Notes: generated by a model not told the origin, from the letters alone. DNA of 64,000 bases from an uncultured Aliarcobacter sp. (GCA_963664305.2 CAXXLV010000002.1:1184001-1248000); one strand, 5' to 3'. Shown: positions 11,905 through 34,107, numbered from the stretch's first letter. A program made the numbers and translations.

Positions 11905-11959
11905 TTTTTTTCCTTTTATTACTTTATAAATAAAACAAAAATTTCATCTATAAAATAAT

Positions 11960-11983: not shown

Positions 11984-11985
11984 AA

Positions 11986-14386: not shown

Positions 14387-14470
14387 TTCCACTCTCATAA
14401 AATTTTTAACTAATTGTTAACAAAATATAAACGGGATATTAACGCAAGAAATCTTAAAAATAAATAAAAT

Positions 14471-14485
14471 TGATAATTAGTATCA
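14471..14485. promoter_or_regulatory. Fur-box-like site upstream of hemP-fiu
   Basis: TGATAATtAGTATCA, 13/14 match. Confidence 0.7.
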
Positions 14486-14498
14486 ATATAAGTTTATT

Positions 14499-14519
14499 AT
14501 AAAGAGAAATTCTCTTTAT
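14499..14519 (-). terminator. Probable intrinsic terminator
   Basis: Inverted repeat ATAAAGAGAA-A-TTCTCTTTAT at the stop of the 14516 ORF. Confidence 0.45.
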
Positions 14520-14995
14520 AATTTAGAGTTTTTTAGTTGTTCTAAAATTTTATTACTGTTTTTAAAACTAAAGTAGATAGTTAAAATTAATAGAATTATA
14601 ATAATAAAAAAGAATGTTAATGTTATTTTATCCCACTCATGTTCTTCATGTTCAGGTTTTGTTAATTTTTCTTTTATTTTTGGTTCAATTTTAAAATCAC
14701 TTTTTTTATTATCATAAATTCCTGATTTAACAACTTTTTCACTAGGACCTCCATCAAGAACAATTTGATATGGTTCATTAGGAATTGAAACAGTAATTTC
14801 ACTCTCTTTAGGTAATCTTTGTTTAAAAATAACTTCTCCCGTTTGCAATGACTCAAAACGAATCATTACGCCAGGAATAGTTTCTCCACCAATTAAAGTA
14901 ATTGTTTTATCATTATTTTCTATAACATTTAACATTAATTCATGCCCATAAATATATGATGTAAAAAAAATAAATATATATAAAATCTTTTTCAT
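14516..14995 (-). CDS. Exported/membrane-anchored hypothetical protein
   Basis: MKKILYIFIFFTSYIYG-H signal peptide after an AAGGA SD (start 14995 preferred), GGP motif, HEEHE and a C-terminal TM. Confidence 0.7.
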   Translation of the reverse strand: MKKILYIFIFFTSYIYGHELMLNVIENNDKTITLIGGETIPGVMIRFESLQTGEVIFKQRLPKESEITVSIPNEPYQIVLDGGPSEKVVKSGIYDNKKSDFKIEPKIKEKLTKPEHEEHEWDKITLTFFFIIIILLILTIYFSFKNSNKILEQLKNSKL

Positions 14996-15009
14996 GTTTG
15001 TTAATCCTT

Positions 15010-16587
15010 TTAAATTTTTTTTGTCCAAAAAGCTTGAATTTCTTCTCTTTTTGTTGGAAGTTTATAGGCAACAAAAAATAATATTGCACCAAATAAAAAT
15101 AATCCAATATCAACATTTAAAATAGTAAACATCTCTTCATTTAAAAGTCTAATCGGAGAAAAACCACTATTAATAAAATGTATAATTGGACTTAACATAA
15201 ATAAAATTCCACCTAAAAAAAGAAACTCTTTTGCTGTTTGATAGGAATTTAATCTATAAAATGACCAAGTTAAAGTTCCCATCCACAATATTCCAAAAAG
15301 TTCTTTTTGTATTAAAACTCTATTTTCCATATCAAAAGGGAATAGCCATTGTAAAACAAATAACAATCCAGTTGCTGGAATTACTCCAATCATAACACAT
15401 AGTGAAATCTTTCCCATTACTTGATAGATTGGTATACCATCTGGAAATTTTCTAGCTTTTTTTTCAAGCCAAAGTAAAACACCAAAACCTATAGCAAAAG
15501 TTGAAATAATCATAATTAAAGCTATTAATAATCTTGTAAAAGTATCTACTCCAAATAAAAAATGTAAAAAAAACAAACTATCATAAAGTAAACCAGACCA
15601 ATGTTTATCCATAACTTTTTGTTGACTAATCAAGCTACCATCTATTCCACTTAAAGTTATATTTGGTTTATTTGAAATTCCATTTAAAAATGGCATATAA
15701 GGGTTGTAACCTTCTATTTTTGCAGTAGCACTTGAATCTCCCCAATTTGTCAACTCAATTTCATGAATATCAAGATTTGGATTAATTTGTTTTGCTTTTT
15801 TAATCAATTCATTCATGGTTATCATTTCAACATTATCATTTTTCTTTTTTATTTCTTCAGATAGAGGAAATAAAACTGGAAATGTTAGTTGAAAAACATT
15901 TGTTGCTTCACCTTTGGATGCAATATATGCCATTGGTGAAGAACCTGTAAATCCTATATTCATTAATGCACCGGTTAAAGTTATGATTATAAAAGGAGGA
16001 AATACAAAAGTAAAAATTTTTCTGTGAAATTTTGAAAATCTACTAACAACTGTTTTTGAACTATCTTTATATTTTATTTTAGTTATTAGTATAACTCCAC
16101 CTATTACTAAAAACATAACTCCAACTGCCATAAGACCAAATAAAATATATCCAAAATCTTTAAAAGGTCTTCCATAATGCATATGATTTAGAAATTCTGC
16201 TAGATTAGAAGCTTTATCTTCATTTTCAACTTCTAAATTTGTATTTGGATTAAAAACTCTAGTCTTAGTAAAATCTGCACTTATTCTTAATGCAGGATCC
16301 CCCATATAACCAGGAAGTATAATATGAACTCCATTTATTTTTGGATATTCAGGGTCTGCTAAAACGGGATCTATCATTGCCCCATAATCTATAGTTGTAA
16401 TATCAGCTAATTTAAAATGTCTTGATGGTTTTTCCCATACTTGAATATATGGAAGTAATATTGCAAATATTCCAAAAAAAACTGCAATATACATAATTAA
16501 AGAAAGAGAAATACCAGTTGCTACATGAACTCTTTGTAATCTTTGTTTAAATAATTTATTTGATTCATTTTCTAAATTTTTATTCAT
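15010..16587 (-). CDS. PepSY-associated TM protein (iron-regulated membrane protein)
   Basis: QRVHVATG, FLNHMHY, KFHRKI, FFLHF and many TM helices. Confidence 0.85.
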   Translation of the reverse strand: MNKNLENESNKLFKQRLQRVHVATGISLSLIMYIAVFFGIFAILLPYIQVWEKPSRHFKLADITTIDYGAMIDPVLADPEYPKINGVHIILPGYMGDPALRISADFTKTRVFNPNTNLEVENEDKASNLAEFLNHMHYGRPFKDFGYILFGLMAVGVMFLVIGGVILITKIKYKDSSKTVVSRFSKFHRKIFTFVFPPFIIITLTGALMNIGFTGSSPMAYIASKGEATNVFQLTFPVLFPLSEEIKKKNDNVEMITMNELIKKAKQINPNLDIHEIELTNWGDSSATAKIEGYNPYMPFLNGISNKPNITLSGIDGSLISQQKVMDKHWSGLLYDSLFFLHFLFGVDTFTRLLIALIMIISTFAIGFGVLLWLEKKARKFPDGIPIYQVMGKISLCVMIGVIPATGLLFVLQWLFPFDMENRVLIQKELFGILWMGTLTWSFYRLNSYQTAKEFLFLGGILFMLSPIIHFINSGFSPIRLLNEEMFTILNVDIGLFLFGAILFFVAYKLPTKREEIQAFWTKKI

Positions 16588-16596
16588 TCATAAGCC

Positions 16597-16902
16597 TTAT
16601 ATATTGTATAAAATTATTATTAAAATTGAAAAAATTAAGGATGGGATTAAAACTTTTAATAATGCGTTTAATTTTGTAGAAGATAAACTAATCCATAAAG
16701 CTAAAATTGCCCAAACAAATGTATTTAAAAATAAAGGAATAATTATTGATTCTCCAACCTTTGCTGGAATTAAAAATATTAGTAAAGTCATTGAAAGATA
16801 AGCAACTAATAAACCACCAAATATCGCACAAATAGCTCTAAAAAGACCAATTTTTTTTCCGCTTGATTCAGGAATAGATAAATTTTTTATCAATTTTTTC
16901 AT
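16597..16902 (-). CDS. Small 3-TM protein of siderophore receptor operons (DUF3649-like)
   Basis: RAICAIFGG motif, three hydrophobic helices, located between the receptor and PepSY genes. Confidence 0.65.
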   Translation of the reverse strand: MKKLIKNLSIPESSGKKIGLFRAICAIFGGLLVAYLSMTLLIFLIPAKVGESIIIPLFLNTFVWAILALWISLSSTKLNALLKVLIPSLIFSILIIILYNI

Positions 16903-16918
16903 TTTTCTCCTAAAATAA

Positions 16919-16941
16919 AAAAGAGGTTTTTAACCTCTTTT
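16919..16941 (-). terminator. Intrinsic terminator or attenuating hairpin after the receptor gene
   Basis: AAAAGAGGTT-TTT-AACCTCTTTT, followed by a U tract on the minus strand. Confidence 0.7.
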
Positions 16942-19060
16942 AAAATGTATATTTCATACCAAGTGTTGCATTTCTTGGATCACCATAAACCATAGAATTA
17001 ACTCCTAAACCTGAGTAATACTCTTCATCAAATATGTTATTAATATTTAATTGTAAATCTAAGTTTTTATTTACTTTGTATCCAGCCATTAAATCTGCTG
17101 TAATAAATCCATCTTGTGTAATATCTCCGTATGAAGAAGTTTTGTAATATTTACTTTTATAATTTAATCCTGCACCAAATCTATAATCATTTACTTTATA
17201 TTTTGCAAAAATATTAGCAGTTGTACGAGAAGAAGATGTGTTAAAATCACTTCCATCACTATTTTTAGCTTCAAAATTAGCAAGTCCAAAGTCCAAACTT
17301 AATTTTTCTGTAATATTTCCTGAAACTCCAACTTCAAAACCTTTACTTACAACTCCATCTTTTGCTTCATAAATACTTTCTAGATTACCATTTACCATAC
17401 CTGAATCTTCTGCAACTCCTTCTTGTTCTATTCTAAATAGAGTTAAAGATGTATTTAAATCACCATCAAGATATTCACCTTTGATTCCAACTTCATAATT
17501 ATTTCCAGTAATTGGATCTAAATAACTTCCACTAGAATCTTTCTTGTCTTGAGGTTTGAAAATACTCGTATAACTTGTATAAATTGAGTGATTTTTGTCT
17601 AAATCATAAACTAATCCAATATATGGAGTTAGTTCATTATCAAAATCTCTATTTCCTGTTCCAAACTCATTTTCATATTTCCAAGATGAAACTCTAATTC
17701 CTGAAATTAATTTTAAATCTTCTTTTAAAGAAAATTTACCAGCCAAATAAGTTCCACTTTGAGTTGTTTCCTCTAAAGCTAAAGAATTAGTTGATGAATA
17801 AACAGGCTCACTAATTGAGATGTTATTAAAATTGATTGTTGTCCATCCAATATTACTTGAATAAGTAGCTTTATCTTTTTTTGATTTTGTATACATTGTT
17901 CCAACAATAATCTCATGATCAAGTTTGGCTAATTCAAAAGGAATTGAAGCATATAAATCTAAGCTATCTTCTTTTATTTCATTAGCAAATCCATATCCAT
18001 ATAATCCAAAATCACCTGAACCAACTACTTGATTACCTGTTGTTTTATCAACTGTCCCACCAAAGTAAGCTAAGTTTCCATCAGATTTAATTTCTCGATG
18101 AACTAAAGATGCATTTAATGAAATATCATCATATACATATTGTTTAAAATCTGCATAATTTGAAGTTGTTTGAATATTCCAAGCTGTCCAATCATCTGAA
18201 ATTGTTTTTGAATTATCAAAAGTTGCTTTTGTTCCGTCACTATAAAAAGCAGGCATTCCACCCCATCTAATACCACTTCTATCTATATCTTCAATACTAC
18301 TTCCTAAAGATAAAAAAGTTGTATCAGTTAAATCCATATCAACTACACCATACAAAATATTTGTTGTTTTGTCATAATTATCCATATAAGACTCTTTGTC
18401 TTGATGTTTAGCTACAACTCTGGCTCTAATATTTCCTTTTTCATTTAATCCAGTTTGAATATCTACAATTTGACTATAATTATTCCATGAACCTGCACTT
18501 AAGTCTATTGTTCCTGTTAACTCTTTAGAATTTGCATGTTTTCTAACAAAATTCATACCAAGTGCAGGATTTCCAGCACCTGTCATTAAGCCATTTGCAC
18601 CTTTTACTATTTCAACCCTATCATAAATTGATAAATCAGGATCATCAGCATTATCACTAATTGAATATGTTGGTACTCCATCATATAAATAATAATCTAT
18701 ATCAAATCCTCTTGCTGTTGGATATACTCTTTCATCCCATTGATTTAGAGTAACTCCTGGAGTTTTTGCTAAAAGTTCTTGATAAGATGTAATATTTTGA
18801 TCATCTAATTTTTGTCTGGTAAATACTAAAACTGATTGTGGTGTTTCTTTTAAAGACATTTCAAGTTTTGTTGCTGTGTTCATACTTCTTGTTGTATAAG
18901 AATCTATTCCTTCTGTTGTACTTTCACTTACATAATATGTAGCATCTTCTGCAACTTTTATCTCTTCTAAAACAGTTTTTTCTTCTGCAAAAACTGATGT
19001 TCCTAAAATCATTGTTGCAAATAATGATAAGTGAATTAATTTTCTTTTTTTATGTTCCAT
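16940..19060 (-). CDS. TonB-dependent siderophore receptor, FhuE/FpvA/FptA type
   Basis: TATKLEMSLKETPQSV, YDRVEIVKGANGLMTGAGNP, LTPYIGLVYDL, YGDPRN, terminal F. Confidence 0.93.
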   Translation of the reverse strand: MEHKKRKLIHLSLFATMILGTSVFAEEKTVLEEIKVAEDATYYVSESTTEGIDSYTTRSMNTATKLEMSLKETPQSVLVFTRQKLDDQNITSYQELLAKTPGVTLNQWDERVYPTARGFDIDYYLYDGVPTYSISDNADDPDLSIYDRVEIVKGANGLMTGAGNPALGMNFVRKHANSKELTGTIDLSAGSWNNYSQIVDIQTGLNEKGNIRARVVAKHQDKESYMDNYDKTTNILYGVVDMDLTDTTFLSLGSSIEDIDRSGIRWGGMPAFYSDGTKATFDNSKTISDDWTAWNIQTTSNYADFKQYVYDDISLNASLVHREIKSDGNLAYFGGTVDKTTGNQVVGSGDFGLYGYGFANEIKEDSLDLYASIPFELAKLDHEIIVGTMYTKSKKDKATYSSNIGWTTINFNNISISEPVYSSTNSLALEETTQSGTYLAGKFSLKEDLKLISGIRVSSWKYENEFGTGNRDFDNELTPYIGLVYDLDKNHSIYTSYTSIFKPQDKKDSSGSYLDPITGNNYEVGIKGEYLDGDLNTSLTLFRIEQEGVAEDSGMVNGNLESIYEAKDGVVSKGFEVGVSGNITEKLSLDFGLANFEAKNSDGSDFNTSSSRTTANIFAKYKVNDYRFGAGLNYKSKYYKTSSYGDITQDGFITADLMAGYKVNKNLDLQLNINNIFDEEYYSGLGVNSMVYGDPRNATLGMKYTF

Positions 19061-19085
19061 TTTCTTCCTCTTTTTATTTCAATTA

Positions 19086-19100
19086 TGATAATTAATCTCA
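19086..19100. promoter_or_regulatory. Fur-box-like site
   Basis: TGATAATtAATCTCA, 12/14 match, just upstream of the receptor start. Confidence 0.6.
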
Positions 19101-19318: not shown

Positions 19319-20005
19319 TTAGAAAATTGTAGTAATTTTATATCCAACTTTTGAAAAATTTTCCAAAGTATTTTCAGGAAGTTTAGTTCTTAATTTTCTT
19401 GCTACAGAACGAATTGCATCTTCACTCATAAAAGATTCATTCCAAACAATAGCTTGTATTGTTTCATAAGATACTAAATTGTTACTATTTTCACAAAGTA
19501 AAGTCAAAAAGTCAGATTCTTTATTTGTTAATTTTACAAATTCATCATTTACATATAAAGATTTAGTCAATAGATTAAAATAAGAATCTTTTGAAAAATA
19601 TTTTAGATTTTTATTGCTATTTTTAATTTTTTTAACACATTGATTCAATATTGGAAAAATTACTTCATGCCTAATTGGTTTTACTAAATACTTTTCAAGT
19701 CTTAATTCAACAGCCTCTAATAAATAATCAGTTTTTGTATAAGCACTTAAGACAATAATTTTTGTATCTAAATCTTTTTCTCTTATTTTTTTTATCATTT
19801 CTAAACCATTTATCTTAGGGAGATTAATATCAGTTATTACAATATGAGGTTTTTTATATTCAATTATTTCAAAAGCTTCAGTTACATCTTTTGCTTCATA
19901 TACCTCATCAAATAATCTTTTTAAATAAGATATTGCATTAATTCTTATATTTTCTTCATCTTCAACAAATAAAATTTTTATATCTTTAAATTCATTTATA
20001 CTCAT
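19319..20005 (-). CDS. OmpR-family response regulator
   Basis: ILFVEDE, ITDINLP, YLVKP, LTNKE...VW...KLRTKL...VGYK. Confidence 0.93.
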   Translation of the reverse strand: MSINEFKDIKILFVEDEENIRINAISYLKRLFDEVYEAKDVTEAFEIIEYKKPHIVITDINLPKINGLEMIKKIREKDLDTKIIVLSAYTKTDYLLEAVELRLEKYLVKPIRHEVIFPILNQCVKKIKNSNKNLKYFSKDSYFNLLTKSLYVNDEFVKLTNKESDFLTLLCENSNNLVSYETIQAIVWNESFMSEDAIRSVARKLRTKLPENTLENFSKVGYKITTIF

Positions 20006-20036
20006 GTTTGAATTTTATCATATTCAAACTAAATTA

Positions 20037-20051
20037 TAATAATTACTATCA
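20037..20051. promoter_or_regulatory. Fur-box-like site between the divergent regulator and kinase genes
   Basis: TAATAATtACTATCA, 12/14 match. Confidence 0.45.
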
Positions 20052-20081
20052 ATATTAATATAAAAACTGTATAATATAAAA

Positions 20082-21776
20082 ATGAAACATTTTTTACTAT
20101 TTATTTTATTTTTATCAAACTTATATAGTTTTGATTTTATTAAAGATTATATTTCTGAAGACAATATACATTTTACTCCTGCTTCATATGATGAATATAA
20201 AACAAAAAAAATCAAAGAGTTTACATTTAAATTTAAAATTGATTTAGAAAATTTAAAAGAAAAACACAGTTATTTAGCAATTGTTTCAAATACAAATGCT
20301 CTGATTTATACTAATTTTAAATATGAAACACTCAACAATACAATATTAATAAAATTAGATGAAATTAAAAATAATGAGTTAATTCTTCAATACAAATATG
20401 AAAAAGAAAAAAGACCTGAGTTTCGATGGAATATTATTTCAGATTTTGAATATAAATACTTACTAAAATTTGAAGGTATTTTATATGGAGTGTCATATGG
20501 AATAATTTTTTGTGCATTTTTATACTACATTATCATCTATTTTTCAACAAGAATGAAATATTTTTTATATTATTCTTTAATGCAATTTTTTGTTTTATTA
20601 TCACTTATTGGTTTTGTATATTTTAGTTATCAAGCTTATCCTTCTTCAACCCCACAAATGATTGTTGATATTTGTGAAACTCTGAGTTTTATGTTTACTT
20701 TATTATTCTGTCAATCTATTTTACAAACTAAAGAAAGATTAGTAATAATTCATAAGTTTTTAAACTTTTTTATATTTTTAAATGTATTAGATATTATTGC
20801 TATTTTTATCTATAAATATTCCATTTTATATGAATATTTACCTTTTCATATAGGCTTTCTAGTTCCTTTTTTTACTGGAATGATAACCATATATAAAGGA
20901 GATAAAAATGCAATAATATATACTTTTGGATGGTTAATAGTAACTATTTTTGTTTATATTGCTGAACATCGAATAGTTCCTATTAGTAATATTTATATCA
21001 TTCATTTAGGTGCTCCTTTAGAATCTTTAATTTTTAGTTTTGCTTTAGGATTAATGTTAAGAAATCTTACAAAAGAAAAAAATGAAAAAGAAAAACTTTT
21101 AATTCATCAAAGTAAACTAGCTTCAATGGGAGAAATGATAAACAATATTGCACATCAATGGAGACAACCTCTAACCCATCTTGGTTTTATTAATATGAAT
21201 TTACAACTTGCATTTGAAGATAAACCAATAAACAAAAAGTACTTAAATGAAAAAATAGAAGAATCCTATATACAACTTGATTTTATGTCAAAAACAATTG
21301 ACAATTTTATGGACTTTTATAAATTAAATAAAAAAACTGAACTCTTTTATATAAGTAATGCAGTAAAAAAAGCTTTAGATATTATGGAACCTATTTTTGA
21401 GAATCATAAAATCAAATTTGATTTTACAGTAATAAAAGATAAACAAATAAATTCTTTTGAAAATGAGTATTCTCAAGTAATTTTAAATCTTTTAACAAAT
21501 GCAAAAGATGCCATTATTTCAAAAAAAATTGAAAATCCAAAAATAAAAATTATTATTGATGTGGAAAACAATAGTTCTATCACTAAAATCTCAGATAATG
21601 CAAAAGGTATTGATAAAAAAAATATTGAAAAAATATTTGAACCATATTTTACAACTAAACAAGCAGGAAGTGGTATAGGACTTTATATGTCAAAAATGAT
21701 TGTTGAGACACATTTTAAAGGTAAAATTAATGTCTCAAACTTAAAAGAAGGAGCTTTATTTTCAATAGTAATATAA
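20082..21776 (+). CDS. 7TM-DISM sensor histidine kinase
   Basis: Seven TM helices, IAHQWRQPL H-box, NLLTNAKDA, FEPYFTTK, GSGIGLY. Confidence 0.92.
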   Translation: MKHFLLFILFLSNLYSFDFIKDYISEDNIHFTPASYDEYKTKKIKEFTFKFKIDLENLKEKHSYLAIVSNTNALIYTNFKYETLNNTILIKLDEIKNNELILQYKYEKEKRPEFRWNIISDFEYKYLLKFEGILYGVSYGIIFCAFLYYIIIYFSTRMKYFLYYSLMQFFVLLSLIGFVYFSYQAYPSSTPQMIVDICETLSFMFTLLFCQSILQTKERLVIIHKFLNFFIFLNVLDIIAIFIYKYSILYEYLPFHIGFLVPFFTGMITIYKGDKNAIIYTFGWLIVTIFVYIAEHRIVPISNIYIIHLGAPLESLIFSFALGLMLRNLTKEKNEKEKLLIHQSKLASMGEMINNIAHQWRQPLTHLGFINMNLQLAFEDKPINKKYLNEKIEESYIQLDFMSKTIDNFMDFYKLNKKTELFYISNAVKKALDIMEPIFENHKIKFDFTVIKDKQINSFENEYSQVILNLLTNAKDAIISKKIENPKIKIIIDVENNSSITKISDNAKGIDKKNIEKIFEPYFTTKQAGSGIGLYMSKMIVETHFKGKINVSNLKEGALFSIVI

Positions 21777-22178: not shown

Positions 22179-22236
22179 GAAAATCCTTTTTATTTTTTTT
22201 GATTATATTTATCAAAGACTTAAAAAACATTTAAAA

Positions 22237-22251
22237 TGATAATTACAATCA
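22237..22251. promoter_or_regulatory. Fur-box-like site
   Basis: TGATAATtACAATCA, 12/14 match, in a divergent promoter region. Confidence 0.55.
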
Positions 22252-22305: not shown

Positions 22306-22455
22306 ATGAAAAACTTAATTGATATAGATAATGAGTATATTTCTAATTCATCTTTATATAAAACAAATGTAAAAATTCACAAAAACTTATGGAAATTTTA
22401 TGGTTTAGCACTTAGCTTTAGTATAATATTTATTTTAATTAAAGGTATAAATTAA
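22306..22455 (+). CDS. Small membrane protein (49 aa, not in the ORF track)
   Basis: Strong SD AAGGAG. MKNLIDIDNEYISNSSLYKTNVKIHKNLWKFYGLALSFSIIFILIKGIN. Its stop overlaps the next ATG (TAATG). Confidence 0.7.
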   Translation: MKNLIDIDNEYISNSSLYKTNVKIHKNLWKFYGLALSFSIIFILIKGIN

Positions 22456-22904
22456 TGGAACCAAATCAAGATGTAGCATTTAATATATTTTTAAAAAATT
22501 TCAAAAAACAAGTTTCAAAAATTGGATTAAAAAATTCAATTCAAAAAGATTATATTTTAAAAGTTTTATATTTTTCAAAAAAACATCTAACAGCTGAAGA
22601 TATTTCAAATGAAATTAAAACTATTTATAATGTATCAATAGGTATTGCAACAGTATATAGAGCTATGAAATTTTTTCATGATATGAAACTTGTAAATCAA
22701 CTTGATATTGGAGATGGTATTTTAAGATATGAACTTAATTTATCTGACCATCATGACCATTTAATTTGTACTTCTTGTGGAACTATTATTGAATTTAATG
22801 ATGACTTAATTGAATTAAATCAAATTAAAATTGCTAGTAAAAATAATTTCATTTTAAAAGAACATGTAATGACAATATATGGACTTTGTGAAAACTGCCA
22901 ATAA
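22455..22904 (+). CDS. Fur-family transcriptional regulator
   Basis: HLTAEDI, IGIATVYR, HHDHLICTSCG, YGLCENC. Confidence 0.93.
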   Translation: MEPNQDVAFNIFLKNFKKQVSKIGLKNSIQKDYILKVLYFSKKHLTAEDISNEIKTIYNVSIGIATVYRAMKFFHDMKLVNQLDIGDGILRYELNLSDHHDHLICTSCGTIIEFNDDLIELNQIKIASKNNFILKEHVMTIYGLCENCQ

Positions 22905-22909
22905 TCCCT

Positions 22910-22924
22910 TGATAATAATTATTA
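22910..22924. promoter_or_regulatory. Fur-box-like site upstream of the fez-like operon
   Basis: TGATAATaATTATTA, 13/14 match. Confidence 0.65.
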
Positions 22925-22984
22925 GTTTATAATAAGTTTAATTTAATAATTAAAAAGAAAAAATACATCTTAGAAAGGATTATT

Positions 22985-23299
22985 TTGATAGATACAGATG
23001 ATATAATAAAAATAGCTAGTTATTTTTCTATTATTGCTCACACTCCTGGAAGATTAAGAGTTAGAGTTAATCCCAAAATAACGCAAAATGCTGGAAATAT
23101 TACCCTAAGTGATATTGAAGATTTACCAAAAAAAATTGATGGAATAATTAATATAAAAATAAATAAAATTATTGCATCAGTTACAATTATTTATGACCCA
23201 AAAATTTTTAAACCAAAACTTTGGGAAGATTTGATTAAAAATGAGAATTTGGAAGAGTTATCAGTACTAATAAATGAACTTGCTAAGGAGGTAATTTAA
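22985..23299 (+). CDS. HMA_2-like domain protein (ferrosome-cluster accessory)
   Basis: AHTPGRLRVR and IKINKIIASVTIIYD motifs, no CxxC. Confidence 0.75.
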   Translation: MIDTDDIIKIASYFSIIAHTPGRLRVRVNPKITQNAGNITLSDIEDLPKKIDGIINIKINKIIASVTIIYDPKIFKPKLWEDLIKNENLEELSVLINELAKEVI

Positions 23300-23982
23300 T
23301 GGTAGAAAATTTTGATGAACAATTACTAATCAATGCAAGAGTTGATATAAATAGTGATATTCCTATACAAACTCAAATTCTAAGAATTGCAGTTTATGAT
23401 GAGTTCAAAGCTTATGAAACATATACAAAAATCATCGAAAAATTTGGATTTGTTCAACCTTTTGTAAACATCAAAGAGGCTGAAGCTATTCACTACTCTG
23501 CTCTAATTCAACTCATGCAAAAATATAACATTGAAGTTCCAATCAATAATTGGTCTTCAAAAATTGAAATTCCAAATACATTAATTGAGTGTTGTGAAAT
23601 GGGTGTAGCAGGTGAAATTGAAAACATTTCCATGTATAACAATTTATTAAGTTATGCTACTGATGCAGATGTTAAAGATGTACTTTTTAGATTGCAAGCA
23701 GCTTCATACAACAATCATTTACCTACATTTAGGAATTGTGTATTAAACCATTATAGTAATGGAAATACACCAACTATATCTCAAGACAATATCATGGAAA
23801 AAATTGGAGAATATCAAGTTATCTTAGATGATATAATGTCTGGAAATATTGATGAAAATTCAATATCTAATATCTTTTCAAAATTAAATCTGTCTATGGT
23901 TAGTGGTGCTGTTTTAGGAGGTGCAATTATTGCTCTTTTAAACAACTATATTTCAAAAAAAGAGATTAAAGAAGAGGAGTAA
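23299..23982 (+). CDS. Ferritin-like (DUF2202-like) protein with C-terminal GxxxG membrane helix
   Basis: DEFKAYETY, EAEAIH, GVAGEIENISMY, AASYNNH. Tail SGAVLGGAIIALL. Confidence 0.8.
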   Translation: MVENFDEQLLINARVDINSDIPIQTQILRIAVYDEFKAYETYTKIIEKFGFVQPFVNIKEAEAIHYSALIQLMQKYNIEVPINNWSSKIEIPNTLIECCEMGVAGEIENISMYNNLLSYATDADVKDVLFRLQAASYNNHLPTFRNCVLNHYSNGNTPTISQDNIMEKIGEYQVILDDIMSGNIDENSISNIFSKLNLSMVSGAVLGGAIIALLNNYISKKEIKEEE

Positions 23983-23985
23983 AAG

Positions 23986-24255
23986 ATGGCTTTACCATTT
24001 ATTTTAGGGTTAGCAGTAGGTGCTGGTGCTATGTTCGCTTTTAGTAATAAAGATAAATTAAAAGATAAATCTTCAAAATTATTTGAAAAAACAAAAGATG
24101 GTGTTGAAGAAATAAAAGATAAATTTTGCGCAACAAAAGAGTGCATTGAAGAAAAAATAGAAAAAAAAACTACCAAAAAAGTTGATAAAGTTCAAGAAGA
24201 AAAACCAAAAACAAGAAAATATCAAAAAAAAGTAAAAACTGAGGAAGAAGCGTGA
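23986..24255 (+). CDS. Small GxxxG membrane protein (FezA-like)
   Basis: MALPFILGLAVGAGAMFAF followed by a charged helical tail. Confidence 0.7.
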   Translation: MALPFILGLAVGAGAMFAFSNKDKLKDKSSKLFEKTKDGVEEIKDKFCATKECIEEKIEKKTTKKVDKVQEEKPKTRKYQKKVKTEEEA

Positions 24256-24623
24256 AAGAGATAAAAGATCTAACAATTGATACAGGAACTCCTAGAAATG
24301 TTCTTGGACATGTAATTAGTGGTGCAGTTGCAAGTGCTGTAATTAGTGGTGCAATTAATTATAAAAAAACTCAAGCTAGACAAATTACAAAAAAAGAAGC
24401 TATTAAAGATACTATCAAAAGAACTTCACAAGGAGCAATTGCTACAGGAAGTGCAATTGCAACTGCAAATTATTTAGGTCAAAAAGGTGGTTTATTAAAA
24501 GCTTTAACTGCTGCATCAATTGGAATGATGGGAATATATGCAATTGAAGTAATAGAAGAAAAACTTGACCAAAAATATTTAACAAACCAAAATATTCCTA
24601 TTGAGGGGGAAGATTATGAATAA
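24252..24623 (+). CDS. Gly/Ala-rich hydrophobic protein (ferrosome-cluster accessory)
   Basis: GHVISGAVASAVISGA, GAIATGSAIATA and ASIGMMG. GTGA overlap with the upstream gene. Confidence 0.7.
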   Translation: MKEIKDLTIDTGTPRNVLGHVISGAVASAVISGAINYKKTQARQITKKEAIKDTIKRTSQGAIATGSAIATANYLGQKGGLLKALTAASIGMMGIYAIEVIEEKLDQKYLTNQNIPIEGEDYE

Positions 24624-24966
24624 TCAAACAAATCAATATGATTTAAATATTGAAAGTACAAGAAATCAAAATCTTCAAACAGGTGCAAATATTAATCAGA
24701 ATCCATACATTAATCAAAATGTAAATTCTTTACAAACTCCTGTTCAAAACCAAGTAACTTCTCAAAATGGTTTTTTAAATAATGATTTTGTAAAAGGTGC
24801 ACTTTTAGGAGCTGCTGTTACTTATCTTCTTACAAATAAAAATGCACAAGATACTATTTTCAAAGCTTTTGGAAAAGGAAGTGAACTTTTTAGTGCTGGA
24901 ATTGAAGAGTTAAAAGAGAGATACGAAGATATGAAAGCTCAAATGCAAGCGCAACAAGAACAATAA
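24616..24966 (+). CDS. GxxxG membrane protein with N/Q-rich N-terminus (FezA/YtxH-like)
   Basis: DFVKGALLGAAVTYLLTN, GIEELKERYED. ATG at 24616 after a GAGGGG SD. Confidence 0.72.
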   Translation: MNNQTNQYDLNIESTRNQNLQTGANINQNPYINQNVNSLQTPVQNQVTSQNGFLNNDFVKGALLGAAVTYLLTNKNAQDTIFKAFGKGSELFSAGIEELKERYEDMKAQMQAQQEQ

Positions 24967-24969
24967 AAA

Positions 24970-27078
24970 ATGAAAAATAAATTTGTAAAAGTACATCAAA
25001 CTGCTTTTAGAGTTAGATACAAACTTTTTTTATTAAAAGAAAAATTTATTGATGAAGAAATATTAAAAAATTACTTCAGAAAAATAAAAGAGATAGAAGA
25101 TGTAAGAATTAATAAAAAAGCTTGCAGTATTATATTTCAATTAAAAAGTGATATAACAGAAAAAATTGAAAAGATTTTAAATAATCTTTCAATTGAAGAG
25201 TTACTTAAATCTTGTGAAGAAGAAGTAGCTGCTGTTTGTGTTTCGTGTTCAAGCAGTGAAGAACCCTCTTTAAAAGGTATTGTAAGAGCTAGTTCAGCTT
25301 TAATTGCTGAAAGATTTATCACAAATAATGCTTTAAAAGCAACTTTAACAACAACTGCATCTATTCCATTATTGGTTGAAGGTTCAAAGGAGTTATTCAA
25401 AGAAGGATTAACTTCTAAAGTTTTAGAAAGTGCTGCTGTTGCTATTTCAATTTATAGAAAAGATTATTTAGCTGCAAACTCAACAAATGCTATGCTTGAA
25501 CTTGGTGAATATATAGAAGAGACAACTGTTCATAAAAGTGATGATTTATTAAAAGAACTTTCTAAACCAAATGTTGAAGAAGCTTGGGTAGAAAAAAATA
25601 TTGATGGAAAAATTACTGAAATATTAGTAAAAAGCTCAAATATTCAAATTGGAGATATTGTAGTTGTAGGAATTGGAAATACTATTCCTGTTGATGGACA
25701 TATTGTTGAGGGAACAGGAACTATAAATCAAGTTTCTATGACAGGAGAAGCACAACCTGTTATAAAATATAGAGGTGATAGGGTAATTTCTGGAACTATC
25801 GTTGAAGAAGGTAGATTTAGAATTTGGGCTGAACATGTAGGAGCTGACACGGCAACACAAAGAATCAAACACTATATTGAAAATTCATTAAACGAGAAAT
25901 CATCTGTTCAACTAAAAGCAAATAAATTAGCAAATAAATTGGTTCCTGTTACACTTGGGCTTGCTACAGCTTCATATATTTTTACAAAAGATATTGAAAG
26001 AGTTGCTTCAATTTTACAAGCTGATTACTCATGTGCATTAAAACTTGCAACTCCTGTTGCCTTTAAATCAACTATTTCAAAAGCTGGTCATAATGGAATT
26101 ATGATTAAAGGTGCAAAATCAATTGAAGCCTTAAATAGTGCAGATACTTTTGTATTTGATAAGACAGGAACATTAACAGCAGGGGAACTTGAAGTTATAA
26201 GTGTTGAATCTTATGATGAGAAATGGACAGAAGAAGAGTTATTAAATCTTACAGCTTCTACAGAAGAACACTATTTTCATCCAGTAGCTGAAGCTGTTGT
26301 AAAAGCTGCAAAACAAAGAGGTTTTGTGCATATGCACCATGAAGAAGTAGAATTTATCGTTGCACATGGTGTAAAAACTGAAGTAAATGGTAAATCTGTA
26401 ATCATTGGAAGTCGTCATTTTTTAGAAGATGATGAAAAGATTGACTTCGGTGAACATAAAGAAAAAATTGAAAATTCTTTAAAAAATGGAAAAACTCTTC
26501 TTTATGTTGGTTATGATGGAAAACTTTTAGGAACAATTGGTTTAAGTGATGAATTAAGATCAAATGCAAAAGAATCAATAACTAAACTAAAAAAACTAGG
26601 TGTAAAAAATATCATAATGCTTACTGGTGATACAAAAGAAAAAGCATTAAAAATTGCCAATGAATTAGGTATTGATGAAGTAAGAGCAGAACTTTTACCG
26701 CAAGATAAAGCAAATATTGTAAAAGAATTGATGGATGAGGGCAAAAAAGTTGCCTTTGTTGGTGATGGTATAAATGATGCGCCTGCTTTAATATCTGCAC
26801 ATGTTGGAATTTCTATGAGTAGAGGTGCTGATATTGCAAAAGCAACAGCAGATATATCTTTACTTAAAGATGATATTGCAGCTGTTGTTGAAGTAAAAGA
26901 GTATGCAAATAAAACTATGAATTTAATAAACAATAACTTTAATGCAACTGTTGGAATAAATTCTTGTATATTAGCTGGTGCAACATTTGGAGTATTTTCA
27001 CCAATTGTAACAGCAGTTTTACATAATGGTACAACTATTGGATTATTGTTCAATTCAATAAAAGGTGTAAAAATCTAA
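24970..27078 (+). CDS. fezB: P1B-6-type heavy-metal ATPase, FezB-like
   Basis: TGE, DKTGT, HP and GDGIND core motifs. TM motifs DYSCA and HNGTT, ExxE (ELGEYIEE), and an N-terminal FRVRY domain. Confidence 0.85.
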   Translation: MKNKFVKVHQTAFRVRYKLFLLKEKFIDEEILKNYFRKIKEIEDVRINKKACSIIFQLKSDITEKIEKILNNLSIEELLKSCEEEVAAVCVSCSSSEEPSLKGIVRASSALIAERFITNNALKATLTTTASIPLLVEGSKELFKEGLTSKVLESAAVAISIYRKDYLAANSTNAMLELGEYIEETTVHKSDDLLKELSKPNVEEAWVEKNIDGKITEILVKSSNIQIGDIVVVGIGNTIPVDGHIVEGTGTINQVSMTGEAQPVIKYRGDRVISGTIVEEGRFRIWAEHVGADTATQRIKHYIENSLNEKSSVQLKANKLANKLVPVTLGLATASYIFTKDIERVASILQADYSCALKLATPVAFKSTISKAGHNGIMIKGAKSIEALNSADTFVFDKTGTLTAGELEVISVESYDEKWTEEELLNLTASTEEHYFHPVAEAVVKAAKQRGFVHMHHEEVEFIVAHGVKTEVNGKSVIIGSRHFLEDDEKIDFGEHKEKIENSLKNGKTLLYVGYDGKLLGTIGLSDELRSNAKESITKLKKLGVKNIIMLTGDTKEKALKIANELGIDEVRAELLPQDKANIVKELMDEGKKVAFVGDGINDAPALISAHVGISMSRGADIAKATADISLLKDDIAAVVEVKEYANKTMNLINNNFNATVGINSCILAGATFGVFSPIVTAVLHNGTTIGLLFNSIKGVKI

Positions 27079-27083
27079 CTTTA

Positions 27084-27143
27084 TGATAATAGTTATCAGT
27101 TTTATTTAAGTTTATACAGATAGAATTATGATAATTATTATCA
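27084..27143. promoter_or_regulatory. Two Fur-box-like sites
   Basis: TGATAATaGTTATCA (27084-27098) and the perfect TGATAATtATTATCA (27129-27143), which abuts an SD. Confidence 0.8.
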
Positions 27144-27154
27144 AAAGGATTTTT

Positions 27155-27271
27155 ATGCCAATATTATTGATTGCAACAGCTTTCACAGCAATTTTAACTG
27201 TTAAAACTGTAAATAAAACTGTAAAAACAATGGAAAAAAGAAGAAAAAGGAAAATAAATGATGAAATTTGA
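27155..27271 (+). CDS. Small membrane peptide (38 aa, not in the ORF track)
   Basis: AAGGA SD. MPILLIATAFTAILTVKTVNKTVKTMEKRRKRKINDEI, overlapping the start of the next gene. Confidence 0.6.
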   Translation: MPILLIATAFTAILTVKTVNKTVKTMEKRRKRKINDEI

Positions 27272-27491
27272 TTTAGAATTACAAAGAGAAGCTGCAAAAA
27301 TTGGTATGACAGCAACACTTGGTGCAACTGTTGTGACGTCAATGTTTATGAAAAATTCTATCGCAAAAAAAACTCATGTTGTTGCAGGTGTTGCATTTTG
27401 TGGATTTGCTTTATGGCACCATATGCTTTATCAACCTAAAAAATCTAAACAAGAAAAATTAATAAAAAAAGTAAAAACAGAAATTGAATAA
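27258..27491 (+). CDS. Small 2-TM His-containing membrane protein
   Basis: AKIGMTATLG and THVVAGVAFCGFALWHH. Confidence 0.72.
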   Translation: MMKFDLELQREAAKIGMTATLGATVVTSMFMKNSIAKKTHVVAGVAFCGFALWHHMLYQPKKSKQEKLIKKVKTEIE

Positions 27492-27524
27492 CTAATTTAT
27501 TTTTGATTAAGATTCTTTATATTA

Positions 27525-27539
27525 TGATAACGATTATCA
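27525..27539. promoter_or_regulatory. Fur-box-like site
   Basis: TGATAACgATTATCA, 13/14 match, just upstream of the ankyrin gene. Confidence 0.72.
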
Positions 27540-27557
27540 TTTTTATAAAGGATTTAA

Positions 27558-28046
27558 ATGTCTAATAATCATCTTCTTCAAAAAAATCTAAATGAACTAA
27601 TTGTAACAAATATTTTTTCATCACTTGTTAGTGGAGAAAAATGGAAAATGTTAATTACTATGTTTGAACTAAAAATACTAGATATAAATGCTAAAGATTC
27701 TAGAGGTAGAAATGCTTTGTATTGGGCAATTTTAAAAAATAAAACAGATATTATAAAAAAACTACTTGAACTTGGAATTTGTACAAAAGTATCTCCAAAT
27801 TTTTCAGCAATAAATTTTGCAGTTTATTTAGACAATATCAAAGTAATCAGATGTTTAAAAAATTGTGGAATAGATATAAATGAAATTGATGATATTAACT
27901 CTACTCCTTTAATTTATGCAATTTTATATAACAAATACAATAGTATCAAATATCTTATAGAAAATGGTGCAAATGTTGAACATGAAGATTTTTTAGGAAA
28001 TAGTGCAAAAAGTTTAGCAAAAAATTTAAAAATAGAAATCTTTTAA
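27558..28046 (+). CDS. Ankyrin repeat protein
   Basis: DINAKDSRGRNALYWA and STPLIYAI...LIENGANV. Confidence 0.9.
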   Translation: MSNNHLLQKNLNELIVTNIFSSLVSGEKWKMLITMFELKILDINAKDSRGRNALYWAILKNKTDIIKKLLELGICTKVSPNFSAINFAVYLDNIKVIRCLKNCGIDINEIDDINSTPLIYAILYNKYNSIKYLIENGANVEHEDFLGNSAKSLAKNLKIEIF

Positions 28047-32519: not shown

Positions 32520-32534
32520 AGATAATTATTATCA
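32520..32534. promoter_or_regulatory. Fur-box-like site between divergent tolC and exbB
   Basis: AGATAATtATTATCA, 13/14 match. Confidence 0.72.
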
Positions 32535-32580
32535 ATATTATATTAAAATTTTCATAATAAAATGCAAAGGATAAAAAATT

Positions 32581-33015
32581 ATGGATAGTATGAATATAGA
32601 AACTCTTAAACATTTAGTAGATTATGGGGTAATATCTCTATTAGTTTTAATGAGTTTCATAGCTGTTTGGTTTTTTATTGAAAGAATTATTTTTTATAAA
32701 AAAATCAATATAAAAAACTACAAAAATAAAAAACAATTAGATGTTGCATTAACAAAACATCTAACAATCATAGGAACAATAGCTTCTAATTCTCCTTATA
32801 TTGGATTACTTGGAACTGTTTTAGCAATTATGCTTACATTTATGACAATGGGAAGTGGAGATATTGATGCAGCAAAAATCATGGAATCTTTAGCATTAGC
32901 TTTAAAAGCAACTGCTGTTGGATTAGTTGTAGCTATAACATCAATGGTGTTTTATAATATTTTGGGAAGATACGCAGAAGTTTTGGAGAGTTTATATGAA
33001 GCTGAAGAAATATGA
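32581..33015 (+). CDS. exbB: TonB-system energizer ExbB
   Basis: IASNSPYIGLLGTV, ALKATAVGL. Confidence 0.95.
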   Translation: MDSMNIETLKHLVDYGVISLLVLMSFIAVWFFIERIIFYKKINIKNYKNKKQLDVALTKHLTIIGTIASNSPYIGLLGTVLAIMLTFMTMGSGDIDAAKIMESLALALKATAVGLVVAITSMVFYNILGRYAEVLESLYEAEEI

Positions 33016-33373
33016 TTCAATAAATGTAATCCCATTTATTGATGTTTTATTAGTACTTTTAGCTATAGTTTTATTAACTTCTACTTTTATTACAAGAGGG
33101 ATAATACCTATATCGTTGCCAAGTGCTTCAAGTGCAGACCAATTAAAACCAAATAAAGAGATTATTTTAGTTATACAAGAAAATGGTGAATTATTTTTTG
33201 AAGATAGAATAGAAACTTTAGAAAATATTGAAAAGATAATTTTACAATCAGTAAAAGAGACTCCTATTCATATTAATACAGACAAAAATACAAAATTTGA
33301 GTCATTTGTTGAAGTTCTTGATATGTTGAAAAAAAACCATTATTCTAATGTATCGATTGTGACAAAAAAATGA
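32996..33373 (+). CDS. exbD: Biopolymer transport protein ExbD
   Basis: INVIPFIDVLLVLL. Confidence 0.95.
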   Translation: MKLKKYDSINVIPFIDVLLVLLAIVLLTSTFITRGIIPISLPSASSADQLKPNKEIILVIQENGELFFEDRIETLENIEKIILQSVKETPIHINTDKNTKFESFVEVLDMLKKNHYSNVSIVTKK

Positions 33374-34107
33374 GTAGACAAACTAAACACAGATATTTAA
33401 ACTCATTTTTTATGGCAACTTCAATATATTTGATTGCATCATTTTTTTTATTTTATGTTTTCGCAGATACTTTAATAGTTCCACCTAAAGAAGAAACTGT
33501 AAAAACTATTTCTTTACAACATGTTGCTTTAAAAGAAGAACCAACTCCTCCACAAGCAGAACCTGAACCTGTTGTGGAAGAAAAACCTGAACCTGAACCA
33601 ATTGTTGAAAAACCAACTCCAATTCAGAAAAAAATTGAAAAGCCAAAACCAAAAAAAGAAAAAGTTGAACATAAAAAAATTGATAAACCAAAACCTATTG
33701 AAAAACCAATAGAAAAAGTTGAACAAAAAACTGAAGTTATACCTGTTCCAGAAGCAAAACCAGTTGAAGCACTTCCATCAAAACCAATGATGAGTGCAAG
33801 TGAAATAGAAAGTATTGAATCAGAATATCTATCAAAAGTTAGATTTCATATAGAAAAAAATAAAACTTATCCTAAAATTGCAAAAAGATTAAATCAAAGT
33901 GGAAAAGTACATGTTACTTTCTTAATCTTAAAAGATGGGAAAATAAAACATTGTAAAGTTCATAAAAGTTCAAATTTTGAGAGTTTAGACAATGCAGCAA
34001 TTGAGATATTTGATAAGATTTCTAGTTTTGAACCTATTCCAGAAAAATTAGATAAAAACTCTTGGGAAATTACTGTTCCAATAGTTTATCAAATTACAAG
34101 AAATTAA
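33370..34107 (+). CDS. tonB: Energy transducer TonB
   Basis: N-terminal TM, EP/KP-rich linker, YPKIAKRLNQSGKV C-terminal domain. Confidence 0.93.
   Translation: MSRQTKHRYLNSFFMATSIYLIASFFLFYVFADTLIVPPKEETVKTISLQHVALKEEPTPPQAEPEPVVEEKPEPEPIVEKPTPIQKKIEKPKPKKEKVEHKKIDKPKPIEKPIEKVEQKTEVIPVPEAKPVEALPSKPMMSASEIESIESEYLSKVRFHIEKNKTYPKIAKRLNQSGKVHVTFLILKDGKIKHCKVHKSSNFESLDNAAIEIFDKISSFEPIPEKLDKNSWEITVPIVYQITRN

Follow-up and report, generated by a model that had tools for sequence, protein, structure and literature searches.

A gene cluster in an uncultured Aliarcobacter sp. raises the question of whether Campylobacterota carry the genes for ferrosomes. Ferrosomes have been shown experimentally in few bacteria, and a 2025 review asks whether further pathogens or commensals possess them. 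A preprint describes fez genes as required for ferrosomes in three species and as enough to form them in E. coli (Grant and Komeili, bioRxiv 10.1101/2020.01.10.902569). The stretch analysed here, called the window, comprises 64,000 nt (GCA_963664305.2 CAXXLV010000002.1:1184001-1248000), and all coordinates are positions in it. We consider 22985-27491 probably to be a seven-gene fez (ferrosome) cluster, and document its gene content, the motifs and clade of its ATPase, the fold of its DUF2202 protein, the conservation of its gene order and the placement of its Fur boxes.

Organization of the cluster

Positions 22985-27078 hold six tightly coupled genes with a Fur gene upstream (Table 1). In gene order, successive genes overlap by 1 nt, are separated by 3 nt, overlap by 4 nt, overlap by 23 nt (shrinking to 8 nt if the 121-aa protein starts at ATG 24616) and are separated by 3 nt. 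The first-pass annotation had delimited an operon at these positions, and its reading frames were all recovered where it had placed them; the six coupled genes stand, but the conserved 77-aa gene at 27258-27491 had been omitted. The 77-aa protein occurs in 16 of 20 related loci, always just downstream of the ATPase, and judged from sequence its gene appears to belong to the conserved cluster as a seventh member. Gene order is kept in all 20 fetched loci that form the comparison set, which span at least four families, and the seven reading frames of the cluster in the window are all intact, with conserved catalytic and motif residues retained. At the edges, homologues of the 49-aa ORF stand at the equivalent place in two of the 20 loci (L017 and L019), and the ankyrin gene is present in only one.

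Table 1. Genes and predicted regulatory sites in and around the candidate fez cluster
Feature	Position	Strand	Basis or remark
49-aa ORF, one hydrophobic segment	22306..22455	+	stop overlaps fur start; gene status uncertain
Fur-family regulator	22455..22904	+	PF01475, E 2e-32
R-rich HMA2-fold soluble protein, 104 aa, FezD-like	22985..23299	+	PF19991, under cut-off
DUF2202 protein	23299..23982	+	PF09968, 27.6 bits, over cut-off
89-aa FezA-like protein	23986..24255	+	N-terminal helix with GxxxG
123-aa MamC-like protein	24252..24623	+	NF038051, under cut-off
121-aa YtxH-like protein	24601..24966	+	GxxxG helix; start probably ATG 24616
FezB-type P1B-6 P-type ATPase, 702 aa	24970..27078	+	motifs and TIGR01525
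77-aa two-helix membrane protein, DUF4405-like	27258..27491	+	resembles FezC membrane hairpin
Ankyrin-repeat gene	27558..28046	+	adjoins conserved cluster, outside it
Fur-box-like sites, 2 mismatches each, upstream of 49-aa ORF and fur	22200-22214, 22237-22251	+	pattern scan
Predicted Fur box TGATAATAATTATTA, 1 mismatch, 75 nt before operon start codon	22910-22924	+	pattern scan
TATAAT of predicted operon promoter, 3' of Fur box	22929-22934	+	sequence
Two predicted Fur boxes (1 mismatch; perfect)	27084-27098, 27129-27143	+	179-nt gap before 77-aa gene
Predicted Fur box, 1 mismatch, before ankyrin gene	27525-27539	+	pattern scan

The ATPase

The ATPase matches TIGR01525 at 496 bits, and its translation carries the DYSCA, HNGTT and ExxE (GEYIEE) motifs that the first-pass annotation had read there, along with DKTGT, TGE and GDGxND; DYSCA lies ~45 residues before DKTGT. 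The R-rich N-terminal domain also claimed for it holds as far as an RxR is present (RVR, residues 14-16, with R14 nearly invariant and R16 invariant in 42 sequences), but this RxR is a single one. Its first 80 residues resemble HMA_2 (E 1.2e-4). P1B-6 pumps have six transmembrane helices rather than eight. In the available text of the preprint, FezB is defined by D[Y/F]SCA in the fourth transmembrane helix, HNxxT in the last transmembrane helix and an R-rich N-terminus consisting of RxR or RxRxR without a CxxC metal-binding domain (Grant and Komeili, 2020). The window ATPase matches this published signature and lies within a supported, motif-dominated clade, which supports its assignment as a probable P1B-6/FezB pump.

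D[Y/F]SCA, HNxxT and RxR are found in 21 of 21 Campylobacterota orthologues examined, the window's included. Among the best 150 representatives at 50% identity, D[YF]SCA occurs in 91 and HNxxT in 119, and the first CPC-type pump appears at rank 89. A FastTree phylogeny of 137 rows places the window ATPase in a 96-row clade (SH-like support 99) in which 85 rows carry SCA, while an IQ-TREE phylogeny of 76 rows gives an SH-aLRT of 97 both to the motif clade and to the Campylobacterota clade. Sister groups with CPC, SCG and D-x-T-G branch separately from the D[YF]SCA clade, as do the host genome's two other P1B pumps. The trees were built without named P1B-1 to P1B-7 references and without the characterised FezB of D. 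magneticus, S. putrefaciens, R. palustris and C. difficile, and because of the latter the FezB clade membership rests on motifs and on uncharacterised relatives.

Alternatively, the pump and its small partners could work at the cytoplasmic membrane without an organelle, in metal export or import or in the metallation of secreted proteins, as is reported for CtpC, a related pump with an R-rich motif. The R-rich motif is not exclusive to FezB, being common, according to the accessible part of the preprint, to related non-FezB pumps such as CtpC (Grant and Komeili, 2020); the nearest solved relatives of the ATPase (CopA, sCoaT and ZntA) are all plasma-membrane exporters, and the literature searched reports no organelle for any Campylobacterota. 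However, the metal-site motifs are of the FezB type and differ from those of the CtpC-like CPC pumps, which form separate clades, and we regard a function without an organelle as unlikely.

Soluble and membrane-anchored partners

The HMA-like protein reported in the first-pass annotation is present as a 104-aa HMA_2-like protein whose PF19991 match (E 1.5e-6, 28.7 bits) falls just under the cut-off of 30 bits. It carries GRLRVRV, in which G22, R23 and R25 never vary and at least 90% of 19 sequences share R27, and has homologues in 20 of 20 related loci. By hhalign it pairs with the 113-aa protein of an Azospirillum six-gene cluster (98.7% probability, E 1.9e-16).

The DUF2202 protein (PF09968 cut-off 22 bits) is present in 19 of the 20 related loci and ends in the C-terminal stretch SGAVLGGAIIALL. 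Its profile matches the PDB entries MJ0754 (1.6e-8) and TM1526, a diiron protein (4.7e-5); its AlphaFold model is a four-helix bundle with pLDDT of at least 94 across residues 11-150, and Foldseek with this model retrieves MJ0754, ferritins and bacterioferritins. In the family E35, E106, G203 and G207 are invariant, the two glycines forming a GxxxG, so that the ferritin-like protein with a GxxxG tail described earlier is found in fold and motif alike. A ferritin-like diiron bundle is a four-helix bundle with the ligands E, ExxH, E and ExxH; the window protein has E35, E62, H65, E106 and H140, and the Glu of the fourth-helix ExxH is missing. All five residues are kept in 15 of 20 DUF2202 sequences, the window's among them, and in five Campylobacter-type copies E62 is replaced by K/R, H65 by G/A and H140 by Y. 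The model supports a ferritin fold for this predicted membrane-anchored protein. The host genome has two ferritin-family genes.

Small membrane proteins

The 89-aa protein has an N-terminal helix, MALPFILGLAVGAG, with an invariant G8xxxG12, followed by a Lys/Glu-rich tail, and is found in 17 of 20 related loci; two of 18 members give weak YtxH matches. In Veillonella, Dorea, Paralachnospira and Mailhella loci, proteins that resemble it weakly (E 8e-5 to 9e-4) are encoded immediately upstream of FezB. The 121-aa protein (19 of 20 loci) has a Q/N-rich N-terminus, an invariant NPY and a helix with an invariant G66xxxG70, then an amphipathic EELKER helix. Its profile recovers, with E 1e-15 to 5e-19, the gene that immediately precedes the ATPase gene in Azospirillum, Cereibacter, Rhodobacter capsulatus and a betaproteobacterial MAG, and both its orthologue on an Arcobacter plasmid and its Azospirillum homologue are annotated as 'YtxH domain-containing protein'. 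The 77-aa protein has invariant His40 and His54. Nine of 17 members of its family match PF14358 (E 0.002-0.009, all under the cut-off), the window's own protein giving no PF14358 match, and by hhalign the family pairs with residues 111-152, the hairpin of a FezC-like Azospirillum protein named 'HMA2 domain-containing protein' (88.9% probability, E 2.4e-6). The accessory families recur beside P1B-6 pumps in Alpha- and Betaproteobacteria.

The 123-aa protein, found in 19 of 20 related loci, is Gly/Ala/Ser-rich with two to three hydrophobic helices and matches the MamC model NF038051 at E 2.8e-5 and 24.3 bits (cut-off 100 bits). Fifteen of 20 family members match this model across the greater part of its length, the best with E 1.4e-9, as against 0/20 and 0/18 members of the other two small-protein families, used as controls; none of the family's matches reaches the 100-bit equivalog cut-off, all being far below it. 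On these profile matches the protein is best described as a remote MamC relative and not a MamC equivalog. The A. butzleri orthologue is called 'magnetosome protein MamC' in one NCBI record; the window context is a fez operon, however, and no magnetosome genes were found in window positions 1-36000.

GxxxG proteins together with a membrane-anchored ferritin-fold protein are the set tied genetically to ferrosomes, which argues against a pump working without an organelle. The HMA_2, DUF4405, YtxH and MamC matches all lie under curated cut-offs, an observation that counts against a fez cluster.

Fur gene and predicted Fur boxes

Scanning the window for the Fur-box pattern TGATAATNATTATCA with at most 2 mismatches gave 13 sites against 2.62 expected, and 0 of 100 shuffles reached 13. 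Six of the 13 flank the cluster (22200, 22237, 22910, 27084, 27129 and 27525), in agreement with the flanking Fur gene and Fur-box-like sites noted before. A Fur box is also found at -72 to -80 in seven of 20 related loci, from several genera, and 14 of the 20 have a Fur homologue no more than 7 kb from the operon. The motif further precedes TonB-dependent receptor, PepSY_TM and exbB genes in the window, and the cluster sits inside an iron-uptake island and is apparently Fur-controlled. The host genome has four Fur-family genes, of which the one adjoining the operon is only one, and this is a point against the fez assignment.

This predicted control bears on two alternatives. An iron exporter induced by iron starvation would make little physiological sense, a further argument against a plasma-membrane pump. 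The compartment or deposit might also serve another cation (Mn, Co, Zn or Ca): a transport assay for a P1B-6 pump was not found in the literature searched, as far as the accessible texts go, and the available part of the 2020 preprint calls the P1B-6 subfamily uncharacterised (Grant and Komeili, 2020). Against this, predicted Fur boxes stand at both promoters in an iron-uptake island, the cluster includes a ferritin-fold partner, and reports on other species describe granules with iron and phosphorus as the product of FezB clusters, making a cation other than iron distinctly improbable.

Comparison with characterised fez clusters

With the larger fez clusters, as described in the accessible part of the preprint (Grant and Komeili, 2020), the window cluster shares the FezB motifs, GxxxG protein(s), an R-rich accessory protein and a nearby Fur; their DUF4405-type protein has as its possible counterpart the 77-aa protein, itself without a PF14358 match. 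In contrast to them, the window cluster has neither a FeoA-domain gene nor a second pump (FezH). A FezH-like SCPC pump lies just upstream in six of 20 Campylobacterota relatives.

The six-gene fez operons of Shewanella putrefaciens CN-32 and Rhodopseudomonas palustris CGA009 are needed for ferrosomes, and the Shewanella operon is sufficient in E. coli, in the parts of those reports available. They encode, as the window does, FezB, a pair of GxxxG proteins, a soluble protein of chaperone-like type and a membrane protein with two helices. In an Azospirillum six-gene cluster of the same composition, the HMA2, MamC-like and YtxH-like proteins of the window and its 77-aa hairpin all have homologues. 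Unlike these operons, the window does not have the single-gene FezC type (HMA domain plus two helices), but keeps only the FezC hairpin, as a separate gene behind its own predicted Fur boxes, and has the DUF2202 protein in addition. The mapping of window genes onto FezC-G, made without the sequences of the model organisms, is provisional. Arcobacter species are aerotolerant, whereas ferrosomes of S. putrefaciens and R. palustris formed only anaerobically in the accounts available, which speaks against a fez cluster here.

Beside FezB, the fezABC cluster of Desulfovibrio magneticus and the FezA/FezB cluster of Clostridioides difficile encode a small protein whose hydrophobic N-terminal region holds a GxxxG, as in the window, although both clusters are smaller. 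In C. difficile, Fur is reported to repress FezA and FezB, with constitutive ferrosome formation in a fur mutant; the window has predicted Fur boxes. In the IQ-TREE phylogeny Firmicutes, Actinobacteria and Desulfovibrionaceae relatives fall in another FezB subclade than the window ATPase, and the model FezB of D. magneticus and C. difficile would presumably join them.

Distribution in Campylobacterota

Orthologues of the cluster are found in 124 of 301 sampled Campylobacterota genomes, with hosts including Campylobacter concisus, C. fetus, C. sputorum, Wolinella, Sulfurospirillum and many Arcobacter species. It is not peculiar to the window's organism, being a known type of system with a standard layout in about half of the sampled Arcobacteraceae. 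Its spread is patchy, with orthologues in 65 of 121 Arcobacteraceae genomes and in 8 of 11 from the window's own genus, and in another Arcobacter a 133-kb plasmid carries the operon next to genes for integrase, HipA and HNH, as might be expected of a horizontally acquired passenger, silent or decaying in the host strain. We give this very little credence: the seven frames are intact with their key residues conserved, gene order and promoter boxes are kept across genera, and the chromosomal flanks are common to the closest relative (L016). In the plasmid copy the genes bear the labels 'hypothetical / DUF2202 / YtxH / heavy metal translocating P-type ATPase', much as the first-pass annotation had expected of routine annotation (a heavy metal ATPase plus hypotheticals).

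Proposed mechanism and significance

By analogy with characterised systems, a fez cluster at 22985-27491 would be Fur-repressed, with iron as its substrate and vesicles and granules as its products, and the host organism would make ferrosomes. As iron falls, Fur would leave the box overlapping the -35 region (22910) and the boxes before the seventh gene, allowing transcription. The FezA-like 89-aa, MamC-like 123-aa, YtxH-like 121-aa and DUF4405-like 77-aa proteins would enter the inner membrane and give shape or stability to a vesicle, into which the FezB P1B-6 ATPase would move Fe(II) from the cytoplasm using ATP. The soluble R-rich HMA2 protein may hand iron to FezB, while the membrane-anchored DUF2202 four-helix-bundle protein may handle or nucleate iron at the membrane. 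The resulting iron-phosphate granule would be a starvation reserve beyond the genome's two ferritin-family genes.

The cluster reveals no new kind of system. For annotation, seven genes labelled hypothetical or 'heavy metal ATPase' can get names. Together with its orthologues it appears, from sequence, to be a concrete, intact and apparently Fur-controlled ferrosome candidate in Campylobacterota, and several orthologue hosts are culturable and genetically tractable. It is possible, and we suggest it tentatively, that Campylobacterota make ferrosomes in microaerobic, host-like iron starvation, with a scaffold that includes a true remote MamC relative. If so, Campylobacter fetus and C. concisus, pathogens of animals and humans, would be among the ferrosome makers, as would Aliarcobacter butzleri. 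The membranes of ferrosomes and magnetosomes would then have at least one structural protein of common ancestry, and ferrosomes would extend beyond anaerobic lifestyles.

Organization and conservation of the gene cluster

The window holds a standard gene cluster of the fez type, which in other bacteria specifies ferrosomes (membrane-bound iron-storage granules), and the identification is sound. Its core is a run of six tightly coupled genes (see table). In order, adjacent genes overlap by 1 nt, are 3 nt apart, overlap by 4 nt, overlap by 23 nt (8 nt if the ATG at 24616 is taken as the start) and are 3 nt apart. For comparison, 18-kb regions around the ATPase orthologue were fetched from 20 Campylobacterota genomes picked to cover 52-87% identity, and were searched by phmmer with the window proteins (E ≤0.01). 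The gene order HMA2, DUF2202, 89-aa, 123-aa, 121-aa, ATPase is conserved among the fetched loci (n = 20).

Features of the cluster and its surroundings, with the number of related loci (of 20) in which each protein was matched; a simple ORF caller was used on these loci and some misses are possibly artefacts
Feature	Position	Strand	Description	Loci
Histidine kinase/response regulator pairs	4846-7016; 19319-21776		7TMR-DISM kinase, OmpR-type regulator	
Iron-uptake island	8896-19100; 32520-34107			
Fur-box site	10133		precedes PepSY_TM gene	
Fur-box site	14471		within iron-uptake island	
Fur-box site	19086		precedes TonB-dependent receptor gene	
Fur-box-like site	20037		2 mismatches	
Fur-box sites	22200; 22237		predicted, near cluster	
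49-aa ORF	22306-22455	+	one hydrophobic helix; overlaps fur start codon	2 (same position)
Fur-family regulator	22455-22904	+	PF01475, E 2e-32	14 (homologue ≤7 kb away)
Fur-box site	22910		75 nt before operon start, then TATAAT	
Six tightly coupled genes	22985-27078	+	80-nt gap after fur	
104-aa HMA2 protein			HMA_2, 28.7 bits (below 30-bit cut-off)	20
227-aa DUF2202 protein			DUF2202, 27.6 bits (above 22-bit cut-off)	19
89-aa protein			no Pfam or NCBIfam match	17
123-aa protein			weak MamC match (NCBIfam)	19
121-aa protein			no Pfam or NCBIfam match	19
702-aa ATPase			heavy-metal P-type ATPase, TIGR01525, 496 bits	20
Fur-box sites	27084; 27129 (perfect match)		ahead of 77-aa gene	
77-aa protein	27258-27491		directly downstream of ATPase	16
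Fur-box site	27525		predicted	
Ankyrin-repeat protein (162 aa)	27558-28046		preceded by own Fur-box-like site	1
Fur-box site	32520		precedes exbB	

The core operon stands as delimited by the first-pass annotation, while the outer boundaries shift: the 77-aa gene belongs to the cluster as its seventh gene, and the ankyrin gene, which had been included, was rejected as a member, being kept in a single related locus. An ORF of 47 aa at 27128-27271 was likewise rejected as a gene (homologue in 1/20 loci; overlap with the perfect Fur box). The 49-aa ORF ahead of fur may encode a small membrane protein that is co-translated with Fur. With its own Fur-box-like site, the product of the ankyrin gene would be an iron-regulated ankyrin protein in a free-living bacterium.

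FezB-type motifs in the ATPase

The coupled reading frames reported in the first pass are present, and the translated ATPase contains the motifs DYSCA, HNGTT, GEYIEE and RVR. The preprint by Grant and Komeili (bioRxiv 10.1101/2020.01.10.902569) takes D[Y/F]SCA and HNxxT, both located in metal-binding helices, as the definition of the P1B-6/FezB group and also remarks on an N-terminal RxR motif. When the window ATPase was scored against 1.84 billion representatives, D[YF]SCA was found in 91, HNxxT in 119 and RxR in 126 of the best 150; among the top 50 the first two motifs occur in 43 and 46, respectively, and the earliest pump of the CPC type appears at rank 89.

Representatives outside the range of 600-900 residues (16 of the 150) were left out of the trees. 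A FastTree tree of 137 rows, rooted on the two other P1B pumps of the window's genome, places the window ATPase within a 96-row clade (support 99) with SCA in 85 rows, separate from sister groups with SCG, D-x-T-G or CPC sites. A quick IQ-TREE tree of 76 hand-picked rows agrees, with a support of 97 for the motif clade; it holds a largely proteobacterial subclade of 29 rows (support 100), within which the Campylobacterota clade is nested (support 97). Names looked up for 20 cluster representatives were only Methylobacter, Thioalkalivibrio, Methylocystis and MAGs, with no characterised FezB. A scan of genome contigs returned at least 601 stretches, and among the matches listed, which were mostly other P-type ATPases, there was none from a model organism; Arcobacter, Azospirillum, Vibrio and Cereibacter records from a plasmid tblastn search served as uncharacterised comparators. 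Judged by its motifs, the window ATPase is of the FezB type, within a clade of uncharacterised relatives that is recognised by motifs alone.

Accessory proteins

The accessory genes are of the kinds catalogued as partners in fez clusters in the Grant and Komeili preprint (bioRxiv 10.1101/2020.01.10.902569), and the window proteins would correspond to FezA and FezC-G. The 89-aa family has an N-terminal helix with an invariant G8xxxG12, and the 121-aa family combines an NPY motif and G66xxxG70 with an amphipathic EELKER helix. In the HMA2 family G22, R23 and R25 are invariant within GRLRVRV, and the window protein aligns with a 113-aa soluble protein of the Azospirillum cluster (hhalign 98.7%, E 1.9e-16). 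The 77-aa family, a set of two-helix membrane proteins, gives sub-threshold DUF4405 matches in 9 of 17 members, and its profile aligns with a different protein of that Azospirillum cluster, the 'HMA2 domain-containing protein', over its C-terminal hairpin of two helices (hhalign 88.9%, E 2.4e-6).

The DUF2202 profile matches diiron-type four-helix-bundle proteins in the PDB (MJ0754, 1.6e-8; TM1526, 4.7e-5). Its AlphaFold model, with pLDDT ≥94 at residues 11-150 and a poorly modelled C-terminal third, retrieves MJ0754, ferritins, bacterioferritins and Dps-like proteins in Foldseek, and the C-terminal helix carries G203xxxG207 in the alignment. Putative metal ligands E35, E62, H65, E106 and H140 are retained in 15 of 20 sequences, the window's included. 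Five Campylobacter-type copies (loci L029 and L031-L034) have E62 replaced by K/R, H65 by G/A and H140 by Y and retain the C-terminal GxxxG helix; in those species the protein may be structural, not catalytic.

The 123-aa family resembles the magnetosome protein MamC: 15 of its 20 members match the NCBIfam MamC model (best E 1.4e-9), all below the 100-bit cut-off, and as a control the model was matched by 0/20 and 0/18 sequences of the remaining two families of small proteins. A profile search with the 123-aa protein found 233 relatives, and each of the 120 listed is Arcobacter-like and assigned to PF26373; NCBI names one relative 'magnetosome protein MamC [Aliarcobacter butzleri]'. Passages retrieved from two papers that mention both ferrosomes and MamC draw no connection between them. 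One 124-aa relative of the MamC-like protein (P0436, 66% identity) is recorded in the transcriptome set of a eukaryote, Anaeramoeba flamelloides, and most likely comes from an Arcobacter-like associate.

Predicted Fur boxes and genomic surroundings

The window was scanned for the 7-1-7 Fur-box consensus. With up to 2 mismatches it gives 13 matches against 2.62 expected, a number reached in 0 of 100 shuffles. Since sites precede the genes for a TonB-dependent receptor, a PepSY_TM protein and ExbB, the motif is valid for this organism. These genes belong to an iron-uptake island around the cluster, which contains two TonB-dependent receptors, two PepSY_TM proteins, a PiuC-like 2OG-Fe(II) oxygenase and ExbB-ExbD-TonB. 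Among the related loci a Fur box lies at -72 to -80 in 7/20, Sulfurospirillum and C. sputorum among them. A promoter and terminator scan of the AT-rich window gave promoter-like sites at about the number expected (46 against 44.1). The window also encodes two pairs of a histidine kinase and a response regulator, and a Fur-box-like site lies between the second pair.

In C. difficile, according to published work, Fur represses FezA and FezB, and ferrosomes are constitutive in a fur mutant. The window's genome has two ferritin-family genes and four Fur-family genes, three of them outside the cluster (C1:70096-70458, C2:1055291-1055629 and C1:29419-29676). Because the strongest Pfam match in the genome lies elsewhere, the cluster-adjacent Fur may be a dedicated paralogue.

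Distribution, a second pump in relatives and possible mobility

The closest named relatives of the ATPase are those of Arcobacter ellisii (94%), A. venerupis (89%) and Aliarcobacter butzleri (87%). At E ≤1e-150 an orthologue is present in 65 of the 121 Arcobacteraceae genomes sampled (61/103 of the high-quality genomes; 15/22 by genus). At E ≤1e-110 one is present in 124 of the 301 Campylobacterota genomes sampled, among them 63/63 within one genus. Exact look-up of orthologue names returned Campylobacter concisus, C. fetus, C. sputorum, C. blaseri, Wolinella and Sulfurospirillum.

Six of the 20 relatives (L022, L023, L024, L029, L033 and L034) differ from the window cluster in having a second P1B pump upstream of the HMA2 gene. 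This pump combines an SCPC site with an N-terminal NRxRLKS, falls in a separate long-branched clade in the tree and probably corresponds to the FezH described in the literature.

In Arcobacter sp. DSM 115972 a 133-kb plasmid carries the seven-gene set (CP129951.1, 128912-133388; locus L036) beside genes for an integrase, a HipA toxin and an HNH endonuclease, a location that suggests horizontal movement of the cluster. The base composition of the window gives no reliable sign of recent transfer. The first reading had expected routine annotation to see a heavy-metal ATPase plus hypotheticals, and the annotation of this plasmid-borne operon bears it out.

By analogy with other bacteria, the cluster would form an organelle, with iron as its substrate and Fur as its regulator. 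A literature search found 'ferrosome' nowhere paired with Arcobacter, Wolinella or Epsilonproteobacteria, and Campylobacter is not named in the ferrosome passages retrieved from a paper that mentions both. The main text of the Grant and Komeili preprint mentions none of the genera Campylobacter, Wolinella and Arcobacter. The cluster is chiefly of value as a candidate with which ferrosomes could readily be sought by experiment in Campylobacterota, pathogens included.
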